Below, piece after piece: positions 25,044 through 43,224 of a DNA stretch of 64,000 nucleotides (the stretch's first letter is position 1; every line of letters begins with the position of its first letter). The DNA is from an uncultured archaeon. Lineage in GTDB: Archaea; Thermoplasmatota; Penumbrarchaeia; JASLWR01. The stretch lies in the NCBI GenBank assembly GCA_964430885.1, contig CAYSHM010000003.1:32001-96000 (forward strand), in the 5' to 3' direction. Under the pieces are notes generated by a model that did no database searches, was not told the DNA's origin, and saw only the letters and a program-made list of their open reading frames with translations. The position numbers and the translations under genes are program-made.

Positions 25044-28000
25044 TTATTTTCGGCCCTTCTTTTCCGTCCGGGATCCCAAACCCATCCCTTCATTTTTAAT
25101 CGCCCTCATCTCCTTCCTCCCTATCCTCGATAGAAGGACTGCGCCTACTGCGACAATCGCTAATAATATGGAAATGGAGCAAAGTATATTTTTCGTATTG
25201 GGTTCATATTCCACTTCCACATTCAAGGTTGTGGAATTACCTTTATCATCATCGTCATATATTGTCAATGTTACAGCATAGGTCCCCTTTTCGTTATATT
25301 TATGCTGGACCCGGGATGTGTTGGTAGTGATTTTGGTACCGTCGCCAAAATCCCAATCATACCTCACAATATTTCCATCAGGATCAAATGAGGAATTTGC
25401 ATCAAAGGTAACATATTCACCAGGCTCAATGAGTTTTGGGACAAAGAGGAAAATGGAGGGACCCACAGGAACATTTGAAACGATCACTTTCAATGTATGA
25501 GTAACATTGCCCTCGCCGTCTGAAGCGGTTATGAATACGTCATGGGTGCCATTGTCGAGATAACCTGTCTGCCACCAAGAAGTAGTTGTTGCACCGGAAT
25601 ATGAAACTGATATGTTTTTATTGTCAGGATCCGTGATCTTCGGATCTATTGAAAGCATTTCCCCTTCCGAAACAACGATATACTTATTGTATTCAATTTT
25701 TGGTAGATCATTAACTGGCGTCACGTTTACCGAGAAGTAGATGGATGTACTGGCATTGTAATTATCTGTAGCTATAAGTGTTATGTTCTCCTGTCCGAAA
25801 TAATTCTTCTTCATGGAGATATGAACGCTATTGTTATTCTCAATGTTGAAAATGATCGAACGGTTCCCAAAGAAAGTATAATTGAGCAATTCATTTTCAT
25901 CTATTCCAAGATCGGGATCCCAAAAGATACTGGAGAGATTGAAATATAGTTTCTCAGGGGTATCTTCCTCTATATAAATCCGGTCCAACTGGGTAATTAT
26001 CTGAGGTGGATCATTAACATTCTTTACAGTAATTTTCAGTTCAATGGTGTCCTCCCCTCCGTTACCGTCAAAAACAAGGAATGTGAAAAAATGGTCACCA
26101 ACTGCGGTATTATTGGGGGTCCACTGGAAACGACCTGTTGTGCGATTCAATTCGAGGTTCGAATGCCCCGTAGGAAGCAACTGGAAATATAAAATATCTA
26201 CAGGCCTATCAATATCCGTCGCGTTCACGACGAAATCCAGAGGGACACCTTGGTAGGTGGTCTTGTTCTCCATGGCTGAAAATACCGGAGGATTATTGAT
26301 CAAATGCAATTCCAATGTTGAGTTGGGAGAACGGACATTCTTACTGTTAACAGCTGTGACATTGATGTAGTACACATGGCCGAAGAAACCTTCTTCTTGA
26401 AAAGTGAATTCGTTATCTTGAATTATTTCGGATGATAACAAATAACTGCCATTTCGATCCTGAATTGTTATCTCATATGCAACATTCTGCCCTTGGAAAT
26501 CAAAACTCGGAGCCCATCTCAGAGTAGGTTTTAACCTATGAGTCGCATTCGCTGAAATGATACTTGGAACCGTGGGAAGATACTTCTTGATACCTGCATA
26601 TTCGAACATAGTACAGGATACAAGTCTGGAGAACTTGGACATATAATCAAAATCCAATCTGGAATAATTATTATCCTCCTCAGGCCAATTGGACGGCCAC
26701 CAATCTTCAATATCAAGTGAATCACTCTCTGATAATCCAACAGCAGGGAGATTGTATTTCCAGAAAGAATAATAATCATCTTGGCCTTCCATGCGCCCAT
26801 CCACCTGTCTAATGCTCAGATCAATATTCTGCCGGATATTCACATCAGTTAAATTATCAACTATGGAATTGGATAATTGATTCTTCCATATCCCACATAC
26901 ATCACCCTGGGCTCCACCATATCCAATTCTATCAAGGGTTATTACTGCTCCTATATTGGACCCTGACAGGTTAAGATTCCTAGCGTACTCATTACTGCCT
27001 ATTCTGCCGCTACCGTTTGAACCTCCATCAACAGCCACGAACCTTATTGTAGCATTGAAATCGTAAGATGATAGCAATCTTGCGCTTTCAAGAAGAACAG
27101 CCATACCGCTGGCATCATCATCTGCACCTTTATAGGCCAATGATTCCGTATCATAATGTGCTAGGATAATATACTCCTCATCAGAAACAGGATTGATCCC
27201 TTCACTTGTACATATGATATTTGTGTAAGCAGTTCCATTCACATAGAAAGTGAACGTATCAACATTTTCACCAAAAAGCTCTGAAAAACGCTGAACCAAA
27301 TAATTCTCTACCTCTTTATGGCTGGTTGTATTTCTATATCTATTGGGAAAGTTCATAAGATCTTTGGTGATAGAACGAATAGATTCCCTTGAAACCCTTC
27401 CTGAAACACTCGAAGGAGAAGCATAATATTCCAATGGGAGACGCAATTGCATGGATTTATCCATATATACATAGTGAATGCTCTTCCCTTCACCTATTGG
27501 ATGGGGATATTCGATTTTATGAGTGGTCTTAATCTCCTGGTCATTCATTTTCAATATCTCTTCAGTGACAATTATTTTTGAAATCTTCCCCTCACTATCG
27601 CTTATTAGATCGGGCGATTGGCCAACGGGTACCCCATTGATATTGGTTATAGCCAAAGGAATACCATTAACCGGGATATTCTGGGACTCGAAAAATATAT
27701 CTAGATACCAGTTGATGCTCAATCTAGACTGCTGATCCAAAATATCTACCTTTTCCTTGTCAATTGTGCAGTTCAAAGCGGAAATAAAACTTGATTCCTC
27801 AAGCTCCATGTCTTTTAAGCAATTACTGAAACTTGAATTTGTTAGCAGAACCGAGGAACGGTTGGCCTTCAATCCCAACTTAGCAAATGATAAAATGGTA
27901 TTATTGAAATAGGACACATTGGTTGATGTTTGGAATATTTTCAACCCCTGCCAATTCGACTCGGAATATTTTGTGAAAATGATGGGTTCCTCAACTGTAC

Positions 28001-28310
28001 CCTGGCATATCATTGCACTATTGATGGTTATCTCTGCTCCGGATCCAATCTTCACAACCGTTCCAGCCCGGACCAATATTTTTTTTTGGTCAACCTGGTA
28101 ATCATCGGTGATTATTTTTGTCCCGCTCCAAACAATATAATCCTCAGCTCTGACATCTTCGCTACCTATTCCAGAAACCTCATAGGGCGATGAATCAACA
28201 CCAAATATTCGGTATATGGAGAAATTATTTAAGGCACATAATATCAATGCTGCCGTTAGAATTATATATATAGGTTTTCTAATTCCATCTACCTTAATAG
28301 CCTGGAGCAT
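25044..28310 (-). CDS. Surface protein with degenerate M28 peptidase, FN3/cadherin-like Ig, PKD and C-terminal TM
   Basis: AHYDT, GADDDASG; VKNVNDPP-type repeats; SFDPDGNIVRYDWDFGDG PKD. Confidence 0.87.
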   Translation of the reverse strand: MLQAIKVDGIRKPIYIILTAALILCALNNFSIYRIFGVDSSPYEVSGIGSEDVRAEDYIVWSGTKIITDDYQVDQKKILVRAGTVVKIGSGAEITINSAMICQGTVEEPIIFTKYSESNWQGLKIFQTSTNVSYFNNTILSFAKLGLKANRSSVLLTNSSFSNCLKDMELEESSFISALNCTIDKEKVDILDQQSRLSINWYLDIFFESQNIPVNGIPLAITNINGVPVGQSPDLISDSEGKISKIIVTEEILKMNDQEIKTTHKIEYPHPIGEGKSIHYVYMDKSMQLRLPLEYYASPSSVSGRVSRESIRSITKDLMNFPNRYRNTTSHKEVENYLVQRFSELFGENVDTFTFYVNGTAYTNIICTSEGINPVSDEEYIILAHYDTESLAYKGADDDASGMAVLLESARLLSSYDFNATIRFVAVDGGSNGSGRIGSNEYARNLNLSGSNIGAVITLDRIGYGGAQGDVCGIWKNQLSNSIVDNLTDVNIRQNIDLSIRQVDGRMEGQDDYYSFWKYNLPAVGLSESDSLDIEDWWPSNWPEEDNNYSRLDFDYMSKFSRLVSCTMFEYAGIKKYLPTVPSIISANATHRLKPTLRWAPSFDFQGQNVAYEITIQDRNGSYLLSSEIIQDNEFTFQEEGFFGHVYYINVTAVNSKNVRSPNSTLELHLINNPPVFSAMENKTTYQGVPLDFVVNATDIDRPVDILYFQLLPTGHSNLELNRTTGRFQWTPNNTAVGDHFFTFLVFDGNGGEDTIELKITVKNVNDPPQIITQLDRIYIEEDTPEKLYFNLSSIFWDPDLGIDENELLNYTFFGNRSIIFNIENNNSVHISMKKNYFGQENITLIATDNYNASTSIYFSVNVTPVNDLPKIEYNKYIVVSEGEMLSIDPKITDPDNKNISVSYSGATTTSWWQTGYLDNGTHDVFITASDGEGNVTHTLKVIVSNVPVGPSIFLFVPKLIEPGEYVTFDANSSFDPDGNIVRYDWDFGDGTKITTNTSRVQHKYNEKGTYAVTLTIYDDDDKGNSTTLNVEVEYEPNTKNILCSISILLAIVAVGAVLLSRIGRKEMRAIKNEGMGLGSRTEKKGRK

Positions 28311-33472: not shown

Positions 33473-34039
33473 TCAGCTGAAAACTGTTTCAAGCACAAAC
33501 TCAATCTCGATCTCACCTGGAATACACCCGAGTGATGAAGCGGTAATTATAGGGGTCAAGGTTTCTTCGACAGATTTAAGGGTGGTCTTGGCAACACCGT
33601 TCTTACACATTACATCCCTCTCAAAAAGAACGCCGCCTGTGGTCCTGAAGGTTATCATCCCATCAAAATGCGTCATAAGGGATCCGTTATGATCACGAAC
33701 GCTTGCGGTTATTGCACACTGGTCCTTTCCATTGGCGATGATCTCAGGTATTCCATTCCCATCCTTGTCCGCCGCATCGGTCTTGATCTGTATAAATGGT
33801 TTGGCCGGTTTCCTATCAATGGATTCAGGTTTCCCAGATTTATTGAAAATGAGATGATAGGCCCAGAGCTGATTCGCTATTGAAGCATCATTGGGAGTGA
33901 AGAAATAATTCACATCGGAGGGCGCGTTTTCAGGATATGAGCTCTGGAAAGTCGGTTCTTTTACCTTCCCCGAACTGTCGTTCATAAGCATTGATACGCC
34001 CACAATCTGTCGGGTATTCTTGTTGTAAAATATGATCAT
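33473..34039 (-). CDS. Tail-fibre-associated-like N-terminus fused to Big_1 Ig domain
   Basis: MIIFYNKNTRQIVG; ANGKDQCAITASVRD...ITFRTTGG...NGVAKTTLKS; TAGGAGGA RBS overlaps the upstream stop. Confidence 0.72.
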   Translation of the reverse strand: MIIFYNKNTRQIVGVSMLMNDSSGKVKEPTFQSSYPENAPSDVNYFFTPNDASIANQLWAYHLIFNKSGKPESIDRKPAKPFIQIKTDAADKDGNGIPEIIANGKDQCAITASVRDHNGSLMTHFDGMITFRTTGGVLFERDVMCKNGVAKTTLKSVEETLTPIITASSLGCIPGEIEIEFVLETVFS

Positions 34040-34050
34040 TTTAATTCCTC

Positions 34051-34527
34051 CTAGGCTACCCCTATGGCAATCCAATTGACAATTCCGTTCTTCTCACCAT
34101 TTCGGGACTGAGCAAATATCCTGAAGCCTTGGGATGAAATATCATGTGGATAGCAAATGATATTAGTTTTTCCTTCTGGTTCATCAACAGTCCCGCTCAA
34201 GGATAACATAACATGCGGCTTAACATCCCAGTTCAATTCGACATATCCCCCGTGGGATGCGATACCCGACGAAAGCATGGTTGAAGATTTATCACCCAAT
34301 TCCTCCATGGCATAGATTATTCCCATTATATCGTCCTTTATCTCCTCCTGCATCTCGTTCCAATCCTCGGAAAGAATTATGTCTCCAGCTTCCTTTATTC
34401 GGGGTTCAAAGTCTGAATCGACCATCCCTGGACCTGTTTTCTTCTTTTTGGAAATGGTTGCTACTTCGATCTTCTTTTCCTTGTCACCGTCGGAAATTAC
34501 TATCTTAGGGGCTTTTTTCTTGGCCAA
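34051..34527 (-). CDS. Short tail-fibre-like protein with H-type-lectin-like C-terminus
   Basis: KEAGDIILSEDWNEMQ; KPHVMLS...DISSQGFRI...VNWIAIG; TTG start, TAGGAGGA RBS. Confidence 0.7.
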   Translation of the reverse strand: MAKKKAPKIVISDGDKEKKIEVATISKKKKTGPGMVDSDFEPRIKEAGDIILSEDWNEMQEEIKDDIMGIIYAMEELGDKSSTMLSSGIASHGGYVELNWDVKPHVMLSLSGTVDEPEGKTNIICYPHDISSQGFRIFAQSRNGEKNGIVNWIAIGVA

Positions 34528-34538
34528 TCACATTCCTC

Positions 34539-35303
34539 CTAGAAAGTTATCTTCCAAATTAATGAAAGAGTCAATTTATCAGTTTTATTAATCTCTGGAA
34601 AGACCACTCTGTTGTACATGGTTCCTTCCCTCTCAGCATTGAATATACCCGCTTCGGAAATGGGAGCATTGCAATCCTCATATCCGAAGGTCGCACCCAG
34701 CGTCAGAGTTGTATCACTCCCGCTTTCCAGGGATGTTCTGGAAAGGTTTACCGGTATGGAGGATACGATTCTTTTTGCATACACAAGCTTCGAATCGGCT
34801 TCCAGTACCTTCTCCACATATTCCTTGTTTCGGGAATTCAAACTCAATTTCTTGAACTCTTCCTCCACAAATCCTTCGTCCGTCTCACCGTAAACATAGA
34901 GGTCAAAAACTTTGTCCGAAGACTTCTTAACCTCTACTGAAATAAAATTCCCCTGCTCTCCAGATAACTTGGAAATTATCTTCAGAACGTCCTTTTTTGC
35001 AGCATCCTTCAATATGAGTGAAGCGCTTTCTTCTTCTTTCAGAAAGCTTTTATCGAAGGCCCGGCGGGGGGACATCTCTTTCTCAAGACCCTTGTCTGTG
35101 GACGAGGGGGTGGCTTTCCCGGTACCAACAGCCATATGGGACATGGGTTTATCTTCTTTACCGCTGAAAAGATCAGCAACATATTTCTTGCCTGATGACA
35201 CAATCAAATTCGGACTCTTGTACTCGTTAATTATATTACCGTCCTTATCACGCAGAATGATCGCTACATTGCCTTTCATATTCTGTTTCTCATCACATAC
35301 CAT
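34539..35303 (-). CDS. Phage tail-fibre-base-like protein with sheath-like inserted domain
   Basis: NLIVSSGK...HMAVGTG...DKGLEKE; ATF...NAPISEAGIFN...YNRVVFPEINKT...LIWKITF; insert SGEQGNFISVEV...EEFKKLSLN...YVEKV. Confidence 0.72.
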   Translation of the reverse strand: MVCDEKQNMKGNVAIILRDKDGNIINEYKSPNLIVSSGKKYVADLFSGKEDKPMSHMAVGTGKATPSSTDKGLEKEMSPRRAFDKSFLKEEESASLILKDAAKKDVLKIISKLSGEQGNFISVEVKKSSDKVFDLYVYGETDEGFVEEEFKKLSLNSRNKEYVEKVLEADSKLVYAKRIVSSIPVNLSRTSLESGSDTTLTLGATFGYEDCNAPISEAGIFNAEREGTMYNRVVFPEINKTDKLTLSLIWKITF

Positions 35304-35660
35304 GGGGTCCACCTTGAAAATGATTCTATAATGCTATATTGATCCTAACACCAAACTTAAACCGTCATTATTTCTGACCAATATTCCATACTTTCTTCAT
35401 TCAATTCAGAGCCTGGGAAATTCATTCATCAAACCTATAATATATATAAAATCCAGACCCGGATAATAACTACACCGACTAGTGAATTAGTATATATGAT
35501 TTATCCTCTTTATGGTTACTTTTTAATAGAGGTACTCCGAAAAACATGATAAACAGAGGAATATAAATCTCATATGACCATTTTTAAAAAACTAGACCAT
35601 AACACCTAAAATACCTCATTGTTGACCCTATTTTATGGATCCTCATACGTCATTTTGTTT

Positions 35661-36236: not shown

Positions 36237-37880
36237 CTAAATATATATTGTCCCTGATGTCTTGCATACCGGGCAGGATATTTGCTGTCTATCCATGGAT
36301 TTTTTTCCTTCTCTATCGTCCTTTATTACAATATCCACTATAAGAATCTCTTTGCAGTTTCCACATACCAGAGTCCTGTTCATCCCAGATTTATTTTCCT
36401 TTGGCTCTTTTCTTTTCAGTTCCTTTGAAAATTTCCTCATAGGCGCTTTTACAATGGGCAGTACTTTTTTCCACATGGGTTCTCCGAGGGAGATTGGCCG
36501 ATACGGCTGAACAACCAAGGGAAAATCCTCTTCTGATTCTTCGGTTATACCTTCCTTCTCTCTTTTTGTCTTGATATTGATGAAGCTCACATAACGGCCC
36601 GGGGTAGATGGTTTTCCTGAAGGAGTGTGTCTTTTTCTAGAGATGACAACAGATATTATCAATGATATTATCAGAATGGAAACCACAATGATTACCAATA
36701 GAATTATAATAAGCGTTATGAGGTCTAAACCCAGAAACCAATCCTTCATTGGATTGCGTTCTTCAGGTGCTGAAATCCCTTCGGAAATGGTTAAATTCAG
36801 AATAGCCGTGCTGGCAGACCCTATCTCATCCTCCACGATCAGTTTAATCCTGTATTTCGCTGGATAATCATACTTGAATGTCGGCGTTTCAACCTCTGAG
36901 TCTATCTTATTATCCCCGTCCAGATCCCATTTATAGCTCAGTACATCCTTTGGGTCCAGATCATAGGTCCCTCGGCAGGTAAAGAAAATAACCTCATCAA
37001 CATAATAGTTGCCCATCATGGGGTCTATTATTGCCACTGGAGGATGATTAGGTATTTCGATCATTATCTTTTTTGGAAATACGTTATAATTAACATTGCC
37101 TGCAATATCCATTGGAGCTATGGACAGATACCGTATATCACCTTCCTCCATTGAGAACAGCAGCAGTACGGGTGACCCCTCGATGGGTTCATCCGTATAA
37201 GGGGTTTCATCGCTGACATCGAATACCTCTGTTTTAGTGATAAAAATATAATAACCAACTGCTTCAGGAACCTCTGTAAATGAAACATCCATATCCTCAT
37301 CGCCTTCATAGTAGGTTGTGATATTGAACGGTGATTCAGGGGGTAGAATGTCATAGTCCCCGACTATGGTGTAAGTCCTGTTAAAGGAAACCTCCATTGA
37401 TCCCATATCTATGAGCAATGTGGCATTTTCAAAATCCAATTGGCCTCCTTCCATCTCCACTGGTATTCCTTGGATAACCTCTGCAAATCCCAAAGTATCA
37501 AGATCGAATTCGGCTACTATTTTTTCGCTCTCATATTCAAAGGTATAGCTCATGGTTATATTTAGATAATCCTCTGTGGTCGAGGATATGTTGAAGAAAA
37601 ATCCCAGGGTATTATCGTCAAATGAACCCCCAGTATCAAGAGGAGAAGGGACCTCTTCAATTTTAAGAGCACTCTGTGAAGAACCATTGAAAAAAATATC
37701 AATAACAAAATCCTCACCTATCCAAGTGACCACATTCTCCAATGGAACGCTTCGTCTAGAATCGAAGGCGGTATAGCATTGACAGTGCGGACCTGTATAA
37801 GTTAAGCATAAAGAGATAAGAATTAAAAATGTGATTAAGCCCCGCGGTACAATTTGCCCCTGATAAATATTTAAGTACAC
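36237..37880 (-). CDS. Membrane protein with FN3/PKD domains and C-terminal Zn ribbon
   Basis: YKWDLDGD PKD, TM helix, terminal CGNC...CPVC. Confidence 0.8.
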   Translation of the reverse strand: MYLNIYQGQIVPRGLITFLILISLCLTYTGPHCQCYTAFDSRRSVPLENVVTWIGEDFVIDIFFNGSSQSALKIEEVPSPLDTGGSFDDNTLGFFFNISSTTEDYLNITMSYTFEYESEKIVAEFDLDTLGFAEVIQGIPVEMEGGQLDFENATLLIDMGSMEVSFNRTYTIVGDYDILPPESPFNITTYYEGDEDMDVSFTEVPEAVGYYIFITKTEVFDVSDETPYTDEPIEGSPVLLLFSMEEGDIRYLSIAPMDIAGNVNYNVFPKKIMIEIPNHPPVAIIDPMMGNYYVDEVIFFTCRGTYDLDPKDVLSYKWDLDGDNKIDSEVETPTFKYDYPAKYRIKLIVEDEIGSASTAILNLTISEGISAPEERNPMKDWFLGLDLITLIIILLVIIVVSILIISLIISVVISRKRHTPSGKPSTPGRYVSFINIKTKREKEGITEESEEDFPLVVQPYRPISLGEPMWKKVLPIVKAPMRKFSKELKRKEPKENKSGMNRTLVCGNCKEILIVDIVIKDDREGKKSMDRQQISCPVCKTSGTIYI

Positions 37881-37984: not shown

Positions 37985-40900
37985 TTATGAATATCTTCCG
38001 CCGGACCATCCATCGTCAGAATCCTCATCGTCCCAGGAATCCCCATCCTCCCACTCGTCCGATTCTAAATCATCGTATTTGCCATATCTTTCATAGTCCT
38101 TGTCTTCAATATCTTCCATTTCTTTATATGACGGTTTGTAAAAATCATCCGAAGCCCCGCCACCATAAGTCCTCCTATCGGATTCCTGACGTTTCTTCTG
38201 CCTTCCTATAATATCCTCTTTTTCCGATATGCGGTCCTCAACCTCCACCAAACGATCCCTCAACTCGCCGAGCTTATTCCTATATGTATGCTTCAGCCTA
38301 TTATATCTCGCCTGGGATATATATTCATCATCGTAATCCCATTCAACCTGGTCAAGCTTCCCCTTGACCCTGTCAATATCCTGCAGTATCTCCTCTCTTT
38401 CCTCTTCAAGCATTACCAGTTCATCCGCAATCTTTCTCTTCAGTTTTGATCTCTTCACTTCCATGAAGAACCACAATATCAGGAGAATTGCAACACCTAT
38501 TACCAGAAATGCTATTGAAGAGATGTAAATCGACTCCAAATCTTTCTCTGATTCTGTCAGGTCATCATCCCCGTCATCGTTATCATCATCGGAGCCGTTA
38601 TTGTCTGGAACATTAACCTTGGAGATGTTTAGAATAATTGTCCTAGTATCCCTGGAACCATCCTTGTCCTTCACCGTCAATTGAACCTGGAATTTTCCGG
38701 ATTTCGAATAAGAATGGTTCAATTGCATGCCAACATCGCCGTTCCCATCTCCGAAATCCCATTCATATATCAATTGGGAATTGTACTCCCCTGGTTTCAG
38801 GTCGGGATCAAAGCTTCCTTCTGCCGAGAAATTGATTAAATCGCCGACCTTGAATTCGGACTGGGCAGGCTGGGTCAGAACCGCGATACAATTCCGGTTG
38901 ATATTGCCCACATCAAAGTTCCAGGTATGCGAAACCAAATCTTTTCCGTCTGACGCCCTAACCATGATGGTATGGTCTCCGCTGGAATTATAATCTGCTT
39001 TGTAAATGTAATTATTTGTTGTAATGTTCTGCTCCAGGCCATCCCGGAACCATGTGTATTCCAGCACGTCCCCGTCCTCATCCTCGCAGGTCAGCACAAA
39101 TTCCCAGCTCTCATTCTCATTCATACTGATCATCGATGCCGGGGAAACATCAACTATCACAGGTGGCTGATTTACGTTGACCACGCTTATGTTCCATTCA
39201 ATGCTGTTTTTGGTAAAATGACCCAAAGTAGCTTCATCGATGACGATGCACCTCACCTTGAATGGTGAATTTATACTGGACATTTCACCCGTATATTCTG
39301 TTGAAAAGGTATAATCCATCATACTAATGTTTCTCTGGACAAGTTCATAATTACCTCCATTTTCAAGATACCAGCTTGTGTTATATTCCGAGAACGGGGT
39401 TTGATTGAGCTCAATGAACAATAACTGGCTTTCACCTTCGTTGAGAGTAATGTTCTCTTCGTCAGGTCCGTATCTTATTATTTCAGGAACTGGTCTTGGC
39501 AGAATATCATATTCCACCACAACATTGTTGTTTGTTTCGAAAGTCTCATTGATCAATTCTTCGGGATCAAGTGTGAAGTTGAAATGATGCAGTCCCAAAG
39601 GTGGAACTGATTCGAACTGGAACTCGCAAATTGCTGTGGACATCGGGCAAAGGGTCACATTCTTGATTTGCGTTACTTGGATCTCTTCATGGACCGCAGA
39701 TACCCTGGCATTTTCCAAAAATGTCAATGAAGGGTTGTTGAGCTCAACGGTAATATTGAATGGAGAGTTCAATGCCGCCCCGGATCCTGGTGAAAAAGAG
39801 ACATTCTCATCAAATATCCTTATGTCAGGTCTTGCCACTGTCAGAGTTTTGATCTCATACAACTCGAAATCGTTAACCATCACTATAACGCCGTGGGACC
39901 CAATATCACATTCACATGGCGTCTCGTCACTTGTCCCTCCAATGAATATTCTCTGATCAAAGCTTCCATTACTGATAGGAATTTCTTCGGACATGTTGAG
40001 TTTCGGAATAATAACAGTGACGGCATCGGATTCAACTCCCATCATGCTTCCTGCTAGGTCCCAGGAACTCTCAGGTGGAATACCAAATGGCATATCCTGA
40101 GTGATATCGTCCCCCAAGGAAAAATCACCTACATCATATGATGTCAGTTCTATACTGCCTTCATCTATACCGATTACAAGATCGGGCAGTTCCAGATAAT
40201 TGCCAGAATTAACTTCGGTGAAGACCACATTCCTAGCATCACCAGAGTAATAACGGACCTGTTCCCCATTCTCAAAATCCAATGAGTAGGTATTAAAATA
40301 TTCTCCTGCGGTATCCTGGACCTCTGTGCCGACGCAGCTTACGGAATTTGATAATAATTGGTTGGTAGTGTTCGTGAAATTCTCACCTGCTATATCTCCT
40401 GACATGTCGGCTTCACGGGTATAGGTCTGATTCCATTCCTCCCCAACTATAAGCGGAAAATCATAATCCTCCAGAGACGCGTCAAAGGTTACATTCTGGG
40501 TCATGTTATAGGTCAATTCGAAATTATCAAAAAAGGAGGTGACGTTGATTATTCCGTTATGAGATTCGGTAATTTTATAGAGCGAAAGATCATCAACACA
40601 CCAGTACTCCATCCCTGAATTATCAGCCACTACTTGAGCGCTCATTAGAGCCCCAGTCATGAAAATATCATAGGTGCCTGTGAAGTTCACCCTGTAGCAA
40701 ATATTATTCCAAGTTCCCATATCAATTGTTTCGATTCCGACAACCGTGTAATCCATATTTCCTGTCAGCGTCCCAGTCAAACTAATGGGATTCCCTTCAT
40801 AATAATAGGTGCCAGTTATATCCATGTCAGTATAATAGCTCCAAGTATCATTAAACAGTAAAGTAGGTACGTCCAGGTAATCAGGCATGCAATCGGCCCT

Positions 40901-41068
40901 GGAATCCGATTCCGAATTTGATGTTGACTTCGGACCCTGGGAGATGGGATGTATTACTGCTGGAACCAATTTATCCAAGTTGATCATAATACTACTCAAT
41001 GAAAGGAAGGATAGGCCGAAAACCATCATCATTGAGAATATAACCGATAGGAGCTTACTCGTTTTCAT
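37985..41068 (-). CDS. Large surface protein: beta-rich N-domain, CARDB, Ig, PKD, TM, coiled coil, Trp-acidic tail
   Basis: PDIRI...LDPEELINETFETNN (CARDB); YEWDFGDG (PKD); TM followed by heptad-rich region. Confidence 0.85.
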   Translation of the reverse strand: MKTSKLLSVIFSMMMVFGLSFLSLSSIMINLDKLVPAVIHPISQGPKSTSNSESDSRADCMPDYLDVPTLLFNDTWSYYTDMDITGTYYYEGNPISLTGTLTGNMDYTVVGIETIDMGTWNNICYRVNFTGTYDIFMTGALMSAQVVADNSGMEYWCVDDLSLYKITESHNGIINVTSFFDNFELTYNMTQNVTFDASLEDYDFPLIVGEEWNQTYTREADMSGDIAGENFTNTTNQLLSNSVSCVGTEVQDTAGEYFNTYSLDFENGEQVRYYSGDARNVVFTEVNSGNYLELPDLVIGIDEGSIELTSYDVGDFSLGDDITQDMPFGIPPESSWDLAGSMMGVESDAVTVIIPKLNMSEEIPISNGSFDQRIFIGGTSDETPCECDIGSHGVIVMVNDFELYEIKTLTVARPDIRIFDENVSFSPGSGAALNSPFNITVELNNPSLTFLENARVSAVHEEIQVTQIKNVTLCPMSTAICEFQFESVPPLGLHHFNFTLDPEELINETFETNNNVVVEYDILPRPVPEIIRYGPDEENITLNEGESQLLFIELNQTPFSEYNTSWYLENGGNYELVQRNISMMDYTFSTEYTGEMSSINSPFKVRCIVIDEATLGHFTKNSIEWNISVVNVNQPPVIVDVSPASMISMNENESWEFVLTCEDEDGDVLEYTWFRDGLEQNITTNNYIYKADYNSSGDHTIMVRASDGKDLVSHTWNFDVGNINRNCIAVLTQPAQSEFKVGDLINFSAEGSFDPDLKPGEYNSQLIYEWDFGDGNGDVGMQLNHSYSKSGKFQVQLTVKDKDGSRDTRTIILNISKVNVPDNNGSDDDNDDGDDDLTESEKDLESIYISSIAFLVIGVAILLILWFFMEVKRSKLKRKIADELVMLEEEREEILQDIDRVKGKLDQVEWDYDDEYISQARYNRLKHTYRNKLGELRDRLVEVEDRISEKEDIIGRQKKRQESDRRTYGGGASDDFYKPSYKEMEDIEDKDYERYGKYDDLESDEWEDGDSWDDEDSDDGWSGGRYS

Positions 41069-41451
41069 TTATCTTCACCCTGACCTCAGCATTTAAAAAT
41101 GCCATGACAATCAATATTTTCAGATTAAATAAACAATGGAAATTGGTTCTATACAAATGGAGTTGACTCTATATATATCCTTCACATTTGTTTTCCGACG
41201 AAAAATCTAAGGTATAGATCTTTCTTCGAATCTACTATCATCTTTTACTGTATTTTGATAGATCTAGAATGAGATTGATGCAGTCCTTTTTGATGCTGTT
41301 TTTTACTTAGCTAACTAAATATTATGCATGAAAATATTAAATAAGGACCAAGCCTTACTATAGTAATATTGAAACATTTGGTCATCAACATTCAATGGTA
41401 AGGTCATATTATCAATGGAAAACTGATACTAATCAAATGGAGGATATGCGG

Positions 41452-43224
41452 ATGAATCAAATTAAAAAACGATATCAAATGGTCCCCTTATTCACCTTCA
41501 TTGCAATATTTATTCTCTATGCAGGATCATTGTCAAACCATACTGATCAGGACATTTCAATCGTTGATTATGAATCCTCCAAATTTATTTTAATTCAGGA
41601 ATTTGAGCGTCCCCCATCGAATGCAGAGAAGGGTACTACTAGGAACAACGGCGCCCCCCAGCTTTTCTGGACCTTGGAAGAGAACTATGAAACCAACGGT
41701 GTTCACCCCATTAATGGAATAAGTACCGACGACTACATTTTCAAAATAAGCTATACTGACACTGACAACGATGATCCCAGAGCAGGCGGGAACTTTATCT
41801 ATCTGGTTCTGAATGGTGTGAACCATAGCCTCACCTGTGTTGACGAGAATTTTGTTGACGGTTCCATATTTCAAACTACCATCAACGGCCTGAATCCCAT
41901 GGACCATGAATACTATTTCCTCTGTTTTGATGGGAATTATACGGTCCGTTTCCCCTCTGAGAACGCATCCCTGCCAGTGATAAATTCCAGACCTGAACTG
42001 ATAATCCCTTACCTCAATCCTTCAGGGGGAAATATTTATTCTGGTAGCGTTTTTCCCAACTTCGCCAATGCTACAGATCCAATTACTTTCCAAGTAATTT
42101 ATCTGGATATCGACAACCATCCCCCCTCATCCGGCCTAGGATCCAGAGGTGTAGTTCTGGATAATGTTTATCACAAGATGAACCCTCAGGAGGGACAGGG
42201 ATTTTATTATGATGGAATCTATTCCAATGGTGAAATGTTCGAGATCTCCTTTCAGGTCAATGTCGGAGACGACCATTCTCACTACTTTGAATTCACCGAC
42301 AGCATGGGTGCAACCAATTATTCCACGCCTATCCAAGGGCCGGTCATTGTTGAAGGATTTCCCGATCTGAGAATCGGCAGGGATTATGAAAGAAGACCTC
42401 TGATCACTGGACAACCCAATTCAGACAATCATACAGAATGGTGGAATATCACCATATCCGCAACCATTGAGAATCCTTCCGAGCATTCCGTCAATCAGCC
42501 CTTCCTGGTAAAATTTGACATATATTATGCAGATATCATTTCCGGGGAATTCTCTTTGGTGCAGGCCGAAGAAGTGACTATCGCCCACCTATATCATACC
42601 CAGCGGAATAAAATAAATATCTCCTTTTCAGCTCTTTCTGTGGGGATATACAAGACAACCGTGACCGCAGACAGCGGATTTGAGATCACCGAGATCGTGG
42701 ATAACAATGATACACACACCAATAATATTGCTAGCGTTCAATTTCAAGTTGGTCCCGACCTGGTCCTGGAAAATGAGAAAATCAATCCTCCCTCTGCTTT
42801 TTCCGGGGAAAGCGTAATAATGTCCGCTACCATATTTAACAACGGCAGGACCACTGCTTATTTTGACAATTCACACCCGCTCATAGTTGAATTCACAATA
42901 AACAATGAAACTTTTATGGATGTCATATCCGAACCTTTGGAACCAGGCGAGCACATAATATCTGATATGGACTATACCTATTTTTCTGAAGGGGAACTGA
43001 TACTCACTGTCAGAGTGGACCGGGACAACAATGTTGAAGAGGCAGGCGACCTCGGCAGCTTCAACAATAATAATGTTGGATTCAAAAAGATCACTTTTAT
43101 AGAAAAACGATATGATTTCAAAACGCCTTCATTTGCACCAAATCTTATCTGGATTTCTCTAACAATGACTCTAGCTACAATAATGAAAACGTTGTTCTCT
43201 AAAAAACAGAAGCAGGACCATTAA
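41452..43224 (+). CDS. Secreted CARDB/Ig-domain protein with PGF-CTERM-like (PSF) anchor
   Basis: Two PDL...NN CARDB units; C-term TPSFAPNL, hydrophobic stretch, KKQK; GGAGG RBS. Confidence 0.82.
   Translation: MNQIKKRYQMVPLFTFIAIFILYAGSLSNHTDQDISIVDYESSKFILIQEFERPPSNAEKGTTRNNGAPQLFWTLEENYETNGVHPINGISTDDYIFKISYTDTDNDDPRAGGNFIYLVLNGVNHSLTCVDENFVDGSIFQTTINGLNPMDHEYYFLCFDGNYTVRFPSENASLPVINSRPELIIPYLNPSGGNIYSGSVFPNFANATDPITFQVIYLDIDNHPPSSGLGSRGVVLDNVYHKMNPQEGQGFYYDGIYSNGEMFEISFQVNVGDDHSHYFEFTDSMGATNYSTPIQGPVIVEGFPDLRIGRDYERRPLITGQPNSDNHTEWWNITISATIENPSEHSVNQPFLVKFDIYYADIISGEFSLVQAEEVTIAHLYHTQRNKINISFSALSVGIYKTTVTADSGFEITEIVDNNDTHTNNIASVQFQVGPDLVLENEKINPPSAFSGESVIMSATIFNNGRTTAYFDNSHPLIVEFTINNETFMDVISEPLEPGEHIISDMDYTYFSEGELILTVRVDRDNNVEEAGDLGSFNNNNVGFKKITFIEKRYDFKTPSFAPNLIWISLTMTLATIMKTLFSKKQKQDH

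Follow-up and report, generated by a model that had tools for sequence, protein, structure and literature searches.

A sheath-type outer domain nested in a putative fibre-anchor protein of an uncultured archaeon

Fibre anchors and sheath domains in described contractile systems

The outer domains of contractile sheaths are usually treated as variable decoration of the sheath alone. An archaeal sheath is known from the haloarchaeal T6SS-like CIS, a contractile system encoded on a chromosome or a plasmid. According to the available text of its description (PMC11566945), domains 1 and 2 of this sheath face inward and carry contraction. Domain 3 faces outward and is the most variable, and residues 209-291, between domains 2 and 3, are unresolved.

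In phi812, arm segment dimers reinforce the baseplate arm which bears the receptor-binding proteins, and the arm segment protein is likened to gp8 and gp105 in the accessible part of PMC13433997. The same part places A511 gp105, phi812 gp118 and T4 gp8 at the baseplate periphery beside the receptor-binding proteins. These proteins work as dimers that are threaded along a scaffold protein, and none of them has a sheath-type insert.

In eCIS, the N-terminal baseplate anchor domains of fibres are encoded after homologues of Tail_P2_I, Baseplate_J and gp25. Some of these anchors are 'minimal attachment-only modules', and one type, eBAP5/DUF6519, has a signature insertion of ~200 aa which forms a beta-barrel/beta-sandwich (10.1101/2025.05.13.653841, available sections). 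Inserted domains in CIS fibre anchors are already on record in these sections of a preprint. An interface with Tail_P2_I proteins is reported for eBAP3/5.

The protein described here, the product of gene 1, follows the same idea as eBAP3-5 and especially eBAP5/DUF6519: an anchor module with an inserted domain. The available sections of 10.1101/2025.05.13.653841 do not call the eBAP5/DUF6519 insertion sheath-derived, and DUF6519 is absent among the 24 Pfam families matched at E<=1 by 39 homologues of gene 1. The scaffold of gene 1 is alike in fold to A511 gp105, phi812 gp118 and T4 gp8. In sequence, both of its halves belong to the family of the ~150-aa phrog_5417 proteins, with only a weak likeness to PF12571. 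Proteins of this kind are encoded after gp25, Baseplate_J and a wedge gene in phage and CIS clusters; unlike gene 1, they have no insert and are bacterial or viral in the loci examined. The insert resembles the sheath outer domain (PF17481; Halogeometricum borinquense Cis2 domain 3, 9ezm; 3hxl; 3lml; phiCD508; phi812) in fold, boundaries, motifs and profile homology. The domain is nested in both contexts, with its two ends returning to the host domain. The host here, however, is not a sheath: it has only 257 aa, and PF04984 and PF17482 are missing. The literature searched contained no account of this chimera, nor of a CIS with dispersed genes in Thermoplasmatota.

Gene 1 and its nested domain

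The window is the whole stretch of DNA analysed, 64,000 nucleotides from an uncultured archaeon. Gene 1 and the parts of its product are as follows.

35443..35450, minus strand: TATA-like TTTATATA 5' of gene 1, read directly from the sequence
34539..35312, minus strand: gene 1, nested-domain protein, putative baseplate/fibre anchor; ORF of 257 aa from GTG
35037..35279, minus strand: N-terminal half, anchor fold (residues 12-92); corresponds in alignment to the first half of the ~150-aa short forms; phrog_4176 match
34713..35036, minus strand: nested domain (residues 93-200); missing in the short forms; homology to the sheath outer beta-sandwich
34542..34712, minus strand: C-terminal half, anchor fold (residues 201-257); corresponds in alignment to the second half of the short forms

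There are three candidate starts for gene 1 (GTG 35312, ATG 35303 and ATG 35279). Since the first residue of orthologues falls at query residues 4-12, either ATG 35303 or ATG 35279 may be the real start. The upstream TTTATATA is possibly an archaeal promoter, judging from its letters. A scan for sigma-70 promoters and terminators gave 10 promoter-like sites where 7.1 were expected and 0 terminators, under a model which is uninformative for an archaeon. The neighbourhood of gene 1 is archaeal and cellular. It contains genes for a ThrRS with an archaeal editing domain, an LSM protein, endonuclease III, a thioredoxin-like protein and a PF01467 cytidylyltransferase-family protein, as well as several giant PKD/CARDB surface proteins. 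No phage genes were found near gene 1.

The two halves which flank the insert belong to one protein family. Positions 9-156 of phrog_5417 (156 positions) are covered by gene 1 residues 11-257 at E 2.3e-24, with the insert interrupting the match, and the tail fibre family phrog_4176 matches residues 9-81 (E 9e-6). In a joint alignment of 12 long and 10 short homologues (A1), all ten short forms have a single gap which spans roughly query residues 88-195. The 68 relatives obtained in a word-based search comprise 42 long forms or fragments and 26 proteins of 142-189 aa; the latter cover just 16-34% of the query. An exhaustive search of 1.84 billion representatives gave 1234 relatives at E<=1e-3. 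Among the best 150 of these 1234, only five carry the insert (241-258 aa) and nearly all of the remainder are proteins of ~145-170 aa which match gene 1 in two stretches. There is also one fusion of 691 aa (P0131), in which the short form is the C-terminal part behind a long N-terminal region. Together, the gapped short forms and the rarity of the insert among the relatives make it a minority feature which lies outside the family fold.

An AlphaFold2 model of gene 1, built from a 39-sequence alignment, has a mean pLDDT of 83.7, with values of 92-98 across residues 91-200. In this model, gene 1 shares the fold of gp8, gp105 and the arm segment outside the insert. VIA-align gave middling scores for the scaffold against A511 gp105 (6hhk; Z 8.7), the phi812 arm segment (9fko, 9euj_H; Z 8.5-8.7) and T4 gp8 (1n7z; Z 6.4), with 94-96 residues aligned in these matches. 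phiKZ gp139 scored Z 6.9. Residues 380-509 of a 953-aa tail chain of HFTV1 scored Z 9.2; the accessible text of the HFTV1 paper states no role for these residues. The tail-collar fibre N-terminal family PF12571 gave a weak match in six of the 39 homologues (best E 0.0032) and none at E<=1 in the window protein itself.

Five of the 48 short-form loci fetched, from three bacterial and two viral contigs, were inspected. In all five, the short-form gene lies 3' of genes for Phage_base_V, gp25/Sheath_initiator, Baseplate_J and an unnamed protein of 370-570 aa, and in one of them a fibre gene with a Peptidase_S74 chaperone follows. A sheath gene is found ~8-10 kb upstream of the short form in four bacterial loci.

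The insert and the outer beta-sandwich domain of contractile sheaths are homologous. Its closest structural match is 9ezm_A, the contracted sheath of Halogeometricum borinquense: model residues 93-198 align with residues 88-208 of that chain at Z 14.6 (VIA-align; rmsd 2.5, 104 residues aligned, 27% identity). Given the domain layout in the available text of PMC11566945, this segment of 9ezm_A is most likely outer domain 3. Other sheaths follow, namely phiCD508 and phi812 (Z 11.8), DSY3957 (3hxl) and Lin1278 (3lml) (Z 10.8), P1 (Z 9.6-10.1) and T4 gp18 (Z 8.7). All chains that align with model residues ~92-201 at Z>=5.9 are sheaths; no non-sheath chain on the insert region scores above Z 2.7. 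Foldseek against the PDB likewise ranked sheath proteins first (9ezm_A, E 3.2e-6). Among predicted viral structures, the scaffold is matched by small 'tail collar fibre' or uncharacterised proteins and the insert by sheath proteins, the latter over 101-140 columns at 16-24% identity.

Sequence profiles give the same assignment. The tail sheath family phrog_279 matches residues 102-202 (E 7e-4), and PF17481 (Phage_sheath_domII) is matched at E<=1 by 14 of the 39 long homologues (best E 1.7e-5). The window protein alone reaches 12.3 bits (E 0.5) against PF17481, under the gathering cut-off of 31.4 bits; the genome's own sheath, at 18.9 bits, is likewise under this cut-off. When alignment A2 was compared by hhalign with nine Thermoplasmatota sheaths, a match was obtained over 91 columns (Prob 96.85, E 2e-10). 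In it, query residues 92-181 are paired with the stretch 87-176 of the sheath encoded in the same genome, at ~21% identity. The closing motif LxGG(S)D is common to the insert and the Thermoplasmatota sheath consensus. Other searches gave no sheath: a direct BLASTP comparison of gene 1 with the sheath of this genome found nothing significant (best local match E 1.3), the A2 profile matched only sortases (E 0.14-0.41) and CAP among PDB sequences, and the insert alone had no usable match in the protein atlas. The Foldseek, VIA-align, hhalign and PF17481 matches put the likeness to sheaths well beyond chance. Neither of the contractile inner domains, PF04984 and PF17482, is matched at E<=1 in the window protein or its 39 homologues, so the nested domain is not a contractile element.

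The initial annotation had described a fibre-base motif whose halves are separated by a sheath-like outer domain, and had placed this domain at 34727-35027 (about residues 96-196, within a single ORF). The translation of 34713-35036 on the minus strand gives residues 93-200, EEESASL...LESGSD, and includes all of the peptides quoted there. The split was read correctly: both halves fall on one fold, and the short forms are gapped where the insert stands. The comparison with sheaths also held, in structure and in profile, and the motifs proposed for it (GxxGN, ExF..L, IN..S.L and LxGGxD) agree with the Thermoplasmatota sheath consensus. The proposed chimera, a sheath domain nested in a fibre base or baseplate anchor, is thus borne out as a structural statement by the sheath matches and the split fold. 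Homologues with and without the insert both exist, which shows that the family fold does not require it. The term 'fibre base' needs refinement. The best fold matches are building blocks of the baseplate periphery (A511 gp105, the phi812 arm segment and T4 gp8), PF12571 is matched weakly and in few homologues, and the short forms directly follow gp25, Baseplate_J and wedge genes.

The chimera has a single origin, or at most very few. In a tree of 200 family members, 42 of the 43 long forms and two insert-bearing fragments form one clade (SH-aLRT 95); the tree was built from 146 core columns only, and rows longer than 175 aa that are not long forms were left out. The long form outside the clade, P0074, has the insert and lacks part of the C-terminal core. 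Across 51 loci from species-representative genomes, all five long forms are labelled Thermoplasmatota, Thermoplasmata or uncultured archaea. The other 46 loci are bacterial: the majority have short forms, and seven show a match to the C-terminal end alone. A single long form, P0021, has a bacterial label ('[Eubacterium] cellulosolvens'). In a sample of 301 genomes of the phylum, gene 1 is present in seven, which belong to three families of one class and include all four genomes of the window's own family.

Compared with 38 long homologues, gene 1 has a mean identity of 73% in the C-terminal half, 47% in the N-terminal half and 44% in the insert, where 17 of 108 columns are at least 90% conserved. 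The closeness of the last two means shows that the insert is under constraint. The most likely donor is the sheath of the same archaeal system, since the insert profile matches Thermoplasmatota sheaths (E 2e-10) and not four bacterial sheaths from short-form clusters (Prob 0.38, E 0.16). This argument for the donor is weak, as the bacterial control profile is shallow, with four sequences that are 75-80% identical.

The cassette and the dispersed parts of a contractile machine

Gene 1 is followed by two small genes on the same strand.

34051..34527, minus strand: gene 2, mini-fibre of 158 aa; begins after an 11-nt gap from gene 1; next to gene 1 in all five archaeal loci
33473..34039, minus strand: gene 3, protein of 188 aa with a C-terminal Ig-like domain; third in all five archaeal loci

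The mechanical ORF of gene 3 starts at TTG 34075. Orthologues start at residue 13 of this ORF (34039), and with this start the gap between gene 2 and gene 3 is also 11 nt. The order of anchor, mini-fibre and Ig-like protein is identical in the five archaeal loci. The flanks have nothing in common and include methylmalonyl-CoA mutase, ABC transporters, Mre11/Rad50/HerA-type genes and PKD proteins. In the window and at all five loci they are housekeeping or surface-protein genes, and no other tail gene adjoins the cassette at these loci. One genome (G158) has a second copy of gene 1 without an adjoining gene 2 or gene 3.

The AF2 model of gene 2 has a disordered Lys-rich N-terminus, a single long helix (residues 53-77) and a beta-sandwich (residues 83-157). 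The beta-sandwich forms a knob which gives middling matches to the R2 pyocin fibre foot, AP22 gp53 and H-type lectins (VIA Z 7.2-7.6). A match to Pfam Gp53-like_C (E 0.017) is under the cut-off and is consistent with these fold matches. Gene 3 matches Invasin_D3 (E 3.5e-6) and Big_1 (E 7.8e-6), both under the Pfam cut-off. No obvious signal peptide was seen when the translations of the three cassette proteins were read by eye. A 1:1 complex prediction for gene 1 and gene 2 (alignments A2 and A4) scored 0.00 against a mark of 0.32, a result that is uninformative either way.

Contigs from two RNA libraries match the locus at >=99% identity and cover 35189-35419 and 34344-34626, that is, the 5' end of gene 1 and, in one contig, the junction of gene 1 and gene 2. 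These contigs cannot mark a transcript start. They indicate presence in an RNA library only, because the study that produced them probably also supplied the source sample, and DNA may have been carried over. Most of the cassette is uncovered, from which it does not follow that the genes are silent.

The genome also encodes core parts of a contractile machine, which are dispersed. They are found at five or more separate loci, in contrast to the haloarchaeal CIS with its 14 structural genes in one cluster (PMC11566945, available text). Outside the cassette, the parts lie on contigs of 28-151 kb.

Contig C6: sheath gene, 475 aa, alone among housekeeping genes
Contig C12: gp25 (148 aa), Baseplate_J (505 aa) and a 403-aa baseplate protein, between housekeeping genes
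Contig C18: zinc-ribbon protein, Phage_base_V spike (225 aa), 279-aa protein and PAAR protein, between housekeeping genes
Contig C32: tube-like gene, 170 aa, between housekeeping genes

The gene on C32 probably encodes the tube, as it is 67% identical to a small gene which lies between two sheath genes in a relative. By BLASTP, the archaeal spike, gp25, Baseplate_J and 403-aa proteins are homologous to those encoded ahead of the short forms in the bacterial and viral clusters (E 1e-11 to 1e-57). On the strength of this homology, a colinear module of spike...gp25, Baseplate_J, wedge, anchor and fibre appears to have been divided among three cassettes. A similar arrangement is seen in a relative (G142), in which the sheath is again solitary; it lies on a different contig from Baseplate_J, and the cassette is on a third, with two of these three contigs >100 kb. 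Tape-measure, terminator and PF06841 tube families were not found in the window's genome (PF06841 gave a 14-bit match only), and a complete machine is therefore not demonstrated. PF05954 had no match in this genome. Neither had PF14065, for which the control genomes gave no match either, and this last result is therefore uninformative.

A sheath with a related domain is present in all seven genomes that have gene 1, against 14 of 301 overall, and Baseplate_J in six of the seven, against 13 of 301. The exception is G077, a genome that is 93% complete, has gene 1 and has no Baseplate_J match. Two genomes (G089 and G162) have an orthologous sheath and no match to gene 1. As the gene 1 genomes are close kin, from three related families, these associations are suggestive only.

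Possible roles of the nested domain

Gene 1 is probably a distal, fibre-anchoring subunit of the baseplate of a chromosomal CIS in a Thermoplasmatota-type archaeon, with a sheath outer domain nested in it. Its scaffold is a small fold of the gp8/gp105/arm-segment kind. Bacteria and phages have this fold as a separate protein of ~150 aa, whose gene lies directly after those for spike, gp25, Baseplate_J and wedge and ahead of the fibres. In a single ancestral event, a copy of the outward beta-sandwich of a sheath was probably spliced into a loop of this scaffold; within sheaths, too, this domain is a nested insertion. Gene 1 would be made together with a short fibre, composed of a coiled-coil helix and a lectin-like knob, and an Ig-like protein. 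The cassette products would then make up the target-binding periphery of the machine, with the nested domain as an additional surface module that projects from the anchor. We infer that the cassette proteins assemble on the CIS and that the nested domain is an outward accessory module; no physical link between cassette and CIS is apparent from gene adjacency in the five archaeal loci.

A different role, which we regard as unlikely, is that the nested domain imitates the sheath lattice and packs the anchor and its fibres against the layer of outer domains on the lowest sheath rings. This sharpens the suggestion in the initial annotation that the domain could dock fibres along the sheath. The nested domain would then stiffen the periphery or link the binding of fibres to the contraction trigger, in parallel to gp25, which imitates the inner handshake domain of the sheath. 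This would fit the presence of a sheath in every gene 1 genome, the closeness of the insert to the sheath outer domain of its own lineage rather than to the sheaths of bacterial relatives, and the conservation of the insert, which equals that of the anchor's N-terminal half and reaches >=90% in 17 of 108 columns. Against it, contraction is the work of domains 1 and 2 in the available text of PMC11566945, where domain 3 is outward and the most variable. Identity to the genome's own sheath domain is also low, at just ~21%. Furthermore, we know of no homotypic lattice formed by outer domains.

In its most far-reaching form, which is more doubtful again, the same idea concerns a whole class-level lineage of marine Thermoplasmatota. 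This lineage would have domesticated a CIS spread over at least five loci, with the captured sheath outer domain of the anchor locking onto the sheath surface and coupling mini-fibre binding to the contraction trigger. Gene 1 would then be the outer-layer counterpart of the gp25 sheath initiator.

It is less likely still that the cassette is the remnant of a lost tail module and now works without a contractile machine, for example as a small lectin/Ig adhesion complex in which the sheath-type domain is a mere stable spacer. The cassette does stand alone among housekeeping genes, as do the sheath, tube-like, baseplate and spike genes, and the second gene 1 copy in G158 has neither partner gene. 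However, gene 1 co-occurs with sheath, Baseplate_J, spike and PAAR genes which are intact, with long open frames, and the dispersal is itself conserved in G142. Finally, a beta-sandwich of other origin that resembles a sheath by chance or convergence is very improbable, for although the window protein alone is under the Pfam threshold and the PDB sequence profile search found a sortase (E 0.14) rather than a sheath, the profiles, the fold and the shared motifs up to LxGGxD are three independent lines with identical boundaries, and non-sheath chains never exceed Z 2.7 on the insert.

Whichever role applies to the anchor, its stable nesting and its conservation at 39-71% identity across the long-form clade show that the sheath outer domain is a portable module. 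The chimera gives a testable hypothesis of contact between the baseplate periphery and the sheath. The fibre module of anchor, lectin-knob mini-fibre and Ig-like protein is a first step towards asking what the targets of these archaea are. A tail-like machine with its parts encoded at separate loci appears to have been retained in an uncultured archaeal lineage, and cluster-based surveys of CIS would miss such a system. The dispersed archaeal machine may be more important than the chimera itself, and is what most deserves to be followed up.

Gene 3 start and surroundings of the cassette

The cassette consists of gene 1 (the baseplate/fibre-anchor protein with the sheath-type insert), gene 2 (the mini-fibre) and gene 3 (an Ig-like protein). 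The mechanically called ORF of gene 3 (window 33473-34075) overlaps the end of gene 2, with a TTG at 34075 as its first codon. All gene 3 orthologues start 12 codons further downstream, which corresponds to the ATG at 34039; from this codon, gene 3 follows gene 2 after an 11-nt spacer, as found between genes 1 and 2.

Genes for predicted surface proteins of very large size lie on both sides of the cassette (window 25044-28310, 36237-37880, 37985-41068 and 41395-43224). These four genes encode:

An M28 peptidase that also carries PKD, Big_9 and cadherin-like domains
Two PKD proteins, each with a C-terminal membrane anchor and an acidic tail
A CARDB protein

Similar giant proteins adjoin the cassette or the sheath gene in relatives (loci L003, L005 and L083).

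Homologues of gene 1

The genome of one relative, G158, contains a divergent second copy of gene 1:

G158 contig C113, L067 1495-2304, minus strand: second gene 1 copy (homologue P0069)

It has 39% identity and carries the insert. Genes 2 and 3 are absent beside it in L067, and it adjoins a gene which was identified by eye as a putative acyl-CoA dehydrogenase. The L067 sequence also gives the impression, again by eye, of being more G+C-rich. This copy could represent either a paralogue or contamination from binning.

In the 691-aa homologue P0131, the short anchor form, which has no insert, makes up the C-terminal part and is preceded by a long N-terminal region (one representative). If that region corresponds to the upstream wedge-type protein, P0131 would be a natural fusion that connects the baseplate wedge with the anchor family.

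The best viral structure matches (BFVD) to the gene 1 model are A0A516LVD4 (294 aa) and A0A6J5MV15 (300 aa). Both align over the whole model, but with an rmsd of about 20; they may represent viral anchor proteins whose inserted domain is another one or is oriented differently.

Dispersal of contractile injection system genes

In the window's own genome, contractile injection system (CIS) genes are dispersed among housekeeping genes, either singly or as cassettes of two to four genes:

C6, L057:11002-12429: solitary sheath gene
C12, L082:7671-10846: one cassette, gp25-Baseplate_J-403-aa baseplate protein
C18, L090:7238-9663: another cassette, Zn-ribbon-spike-279 aa-PAAR
C32, L088:7801-8313: solitary tube-like gene

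CIS genes are dispersed in the same way in the relative G142. The sheath gene is not solitary in G158 and G186, which represent two further families of the class:

G158 contig C59, L084 3916-7596: sheath (535 aa), 143-aa tube-like gene, second sheath (463 aa)
G186 contig C33, L085 8096-10556: sheath, then a 168-aa gene

These two loci look like intermediate stages of dispersal. CIS surveys which rely on gene clusters would overlook a system dispersed in this manner.
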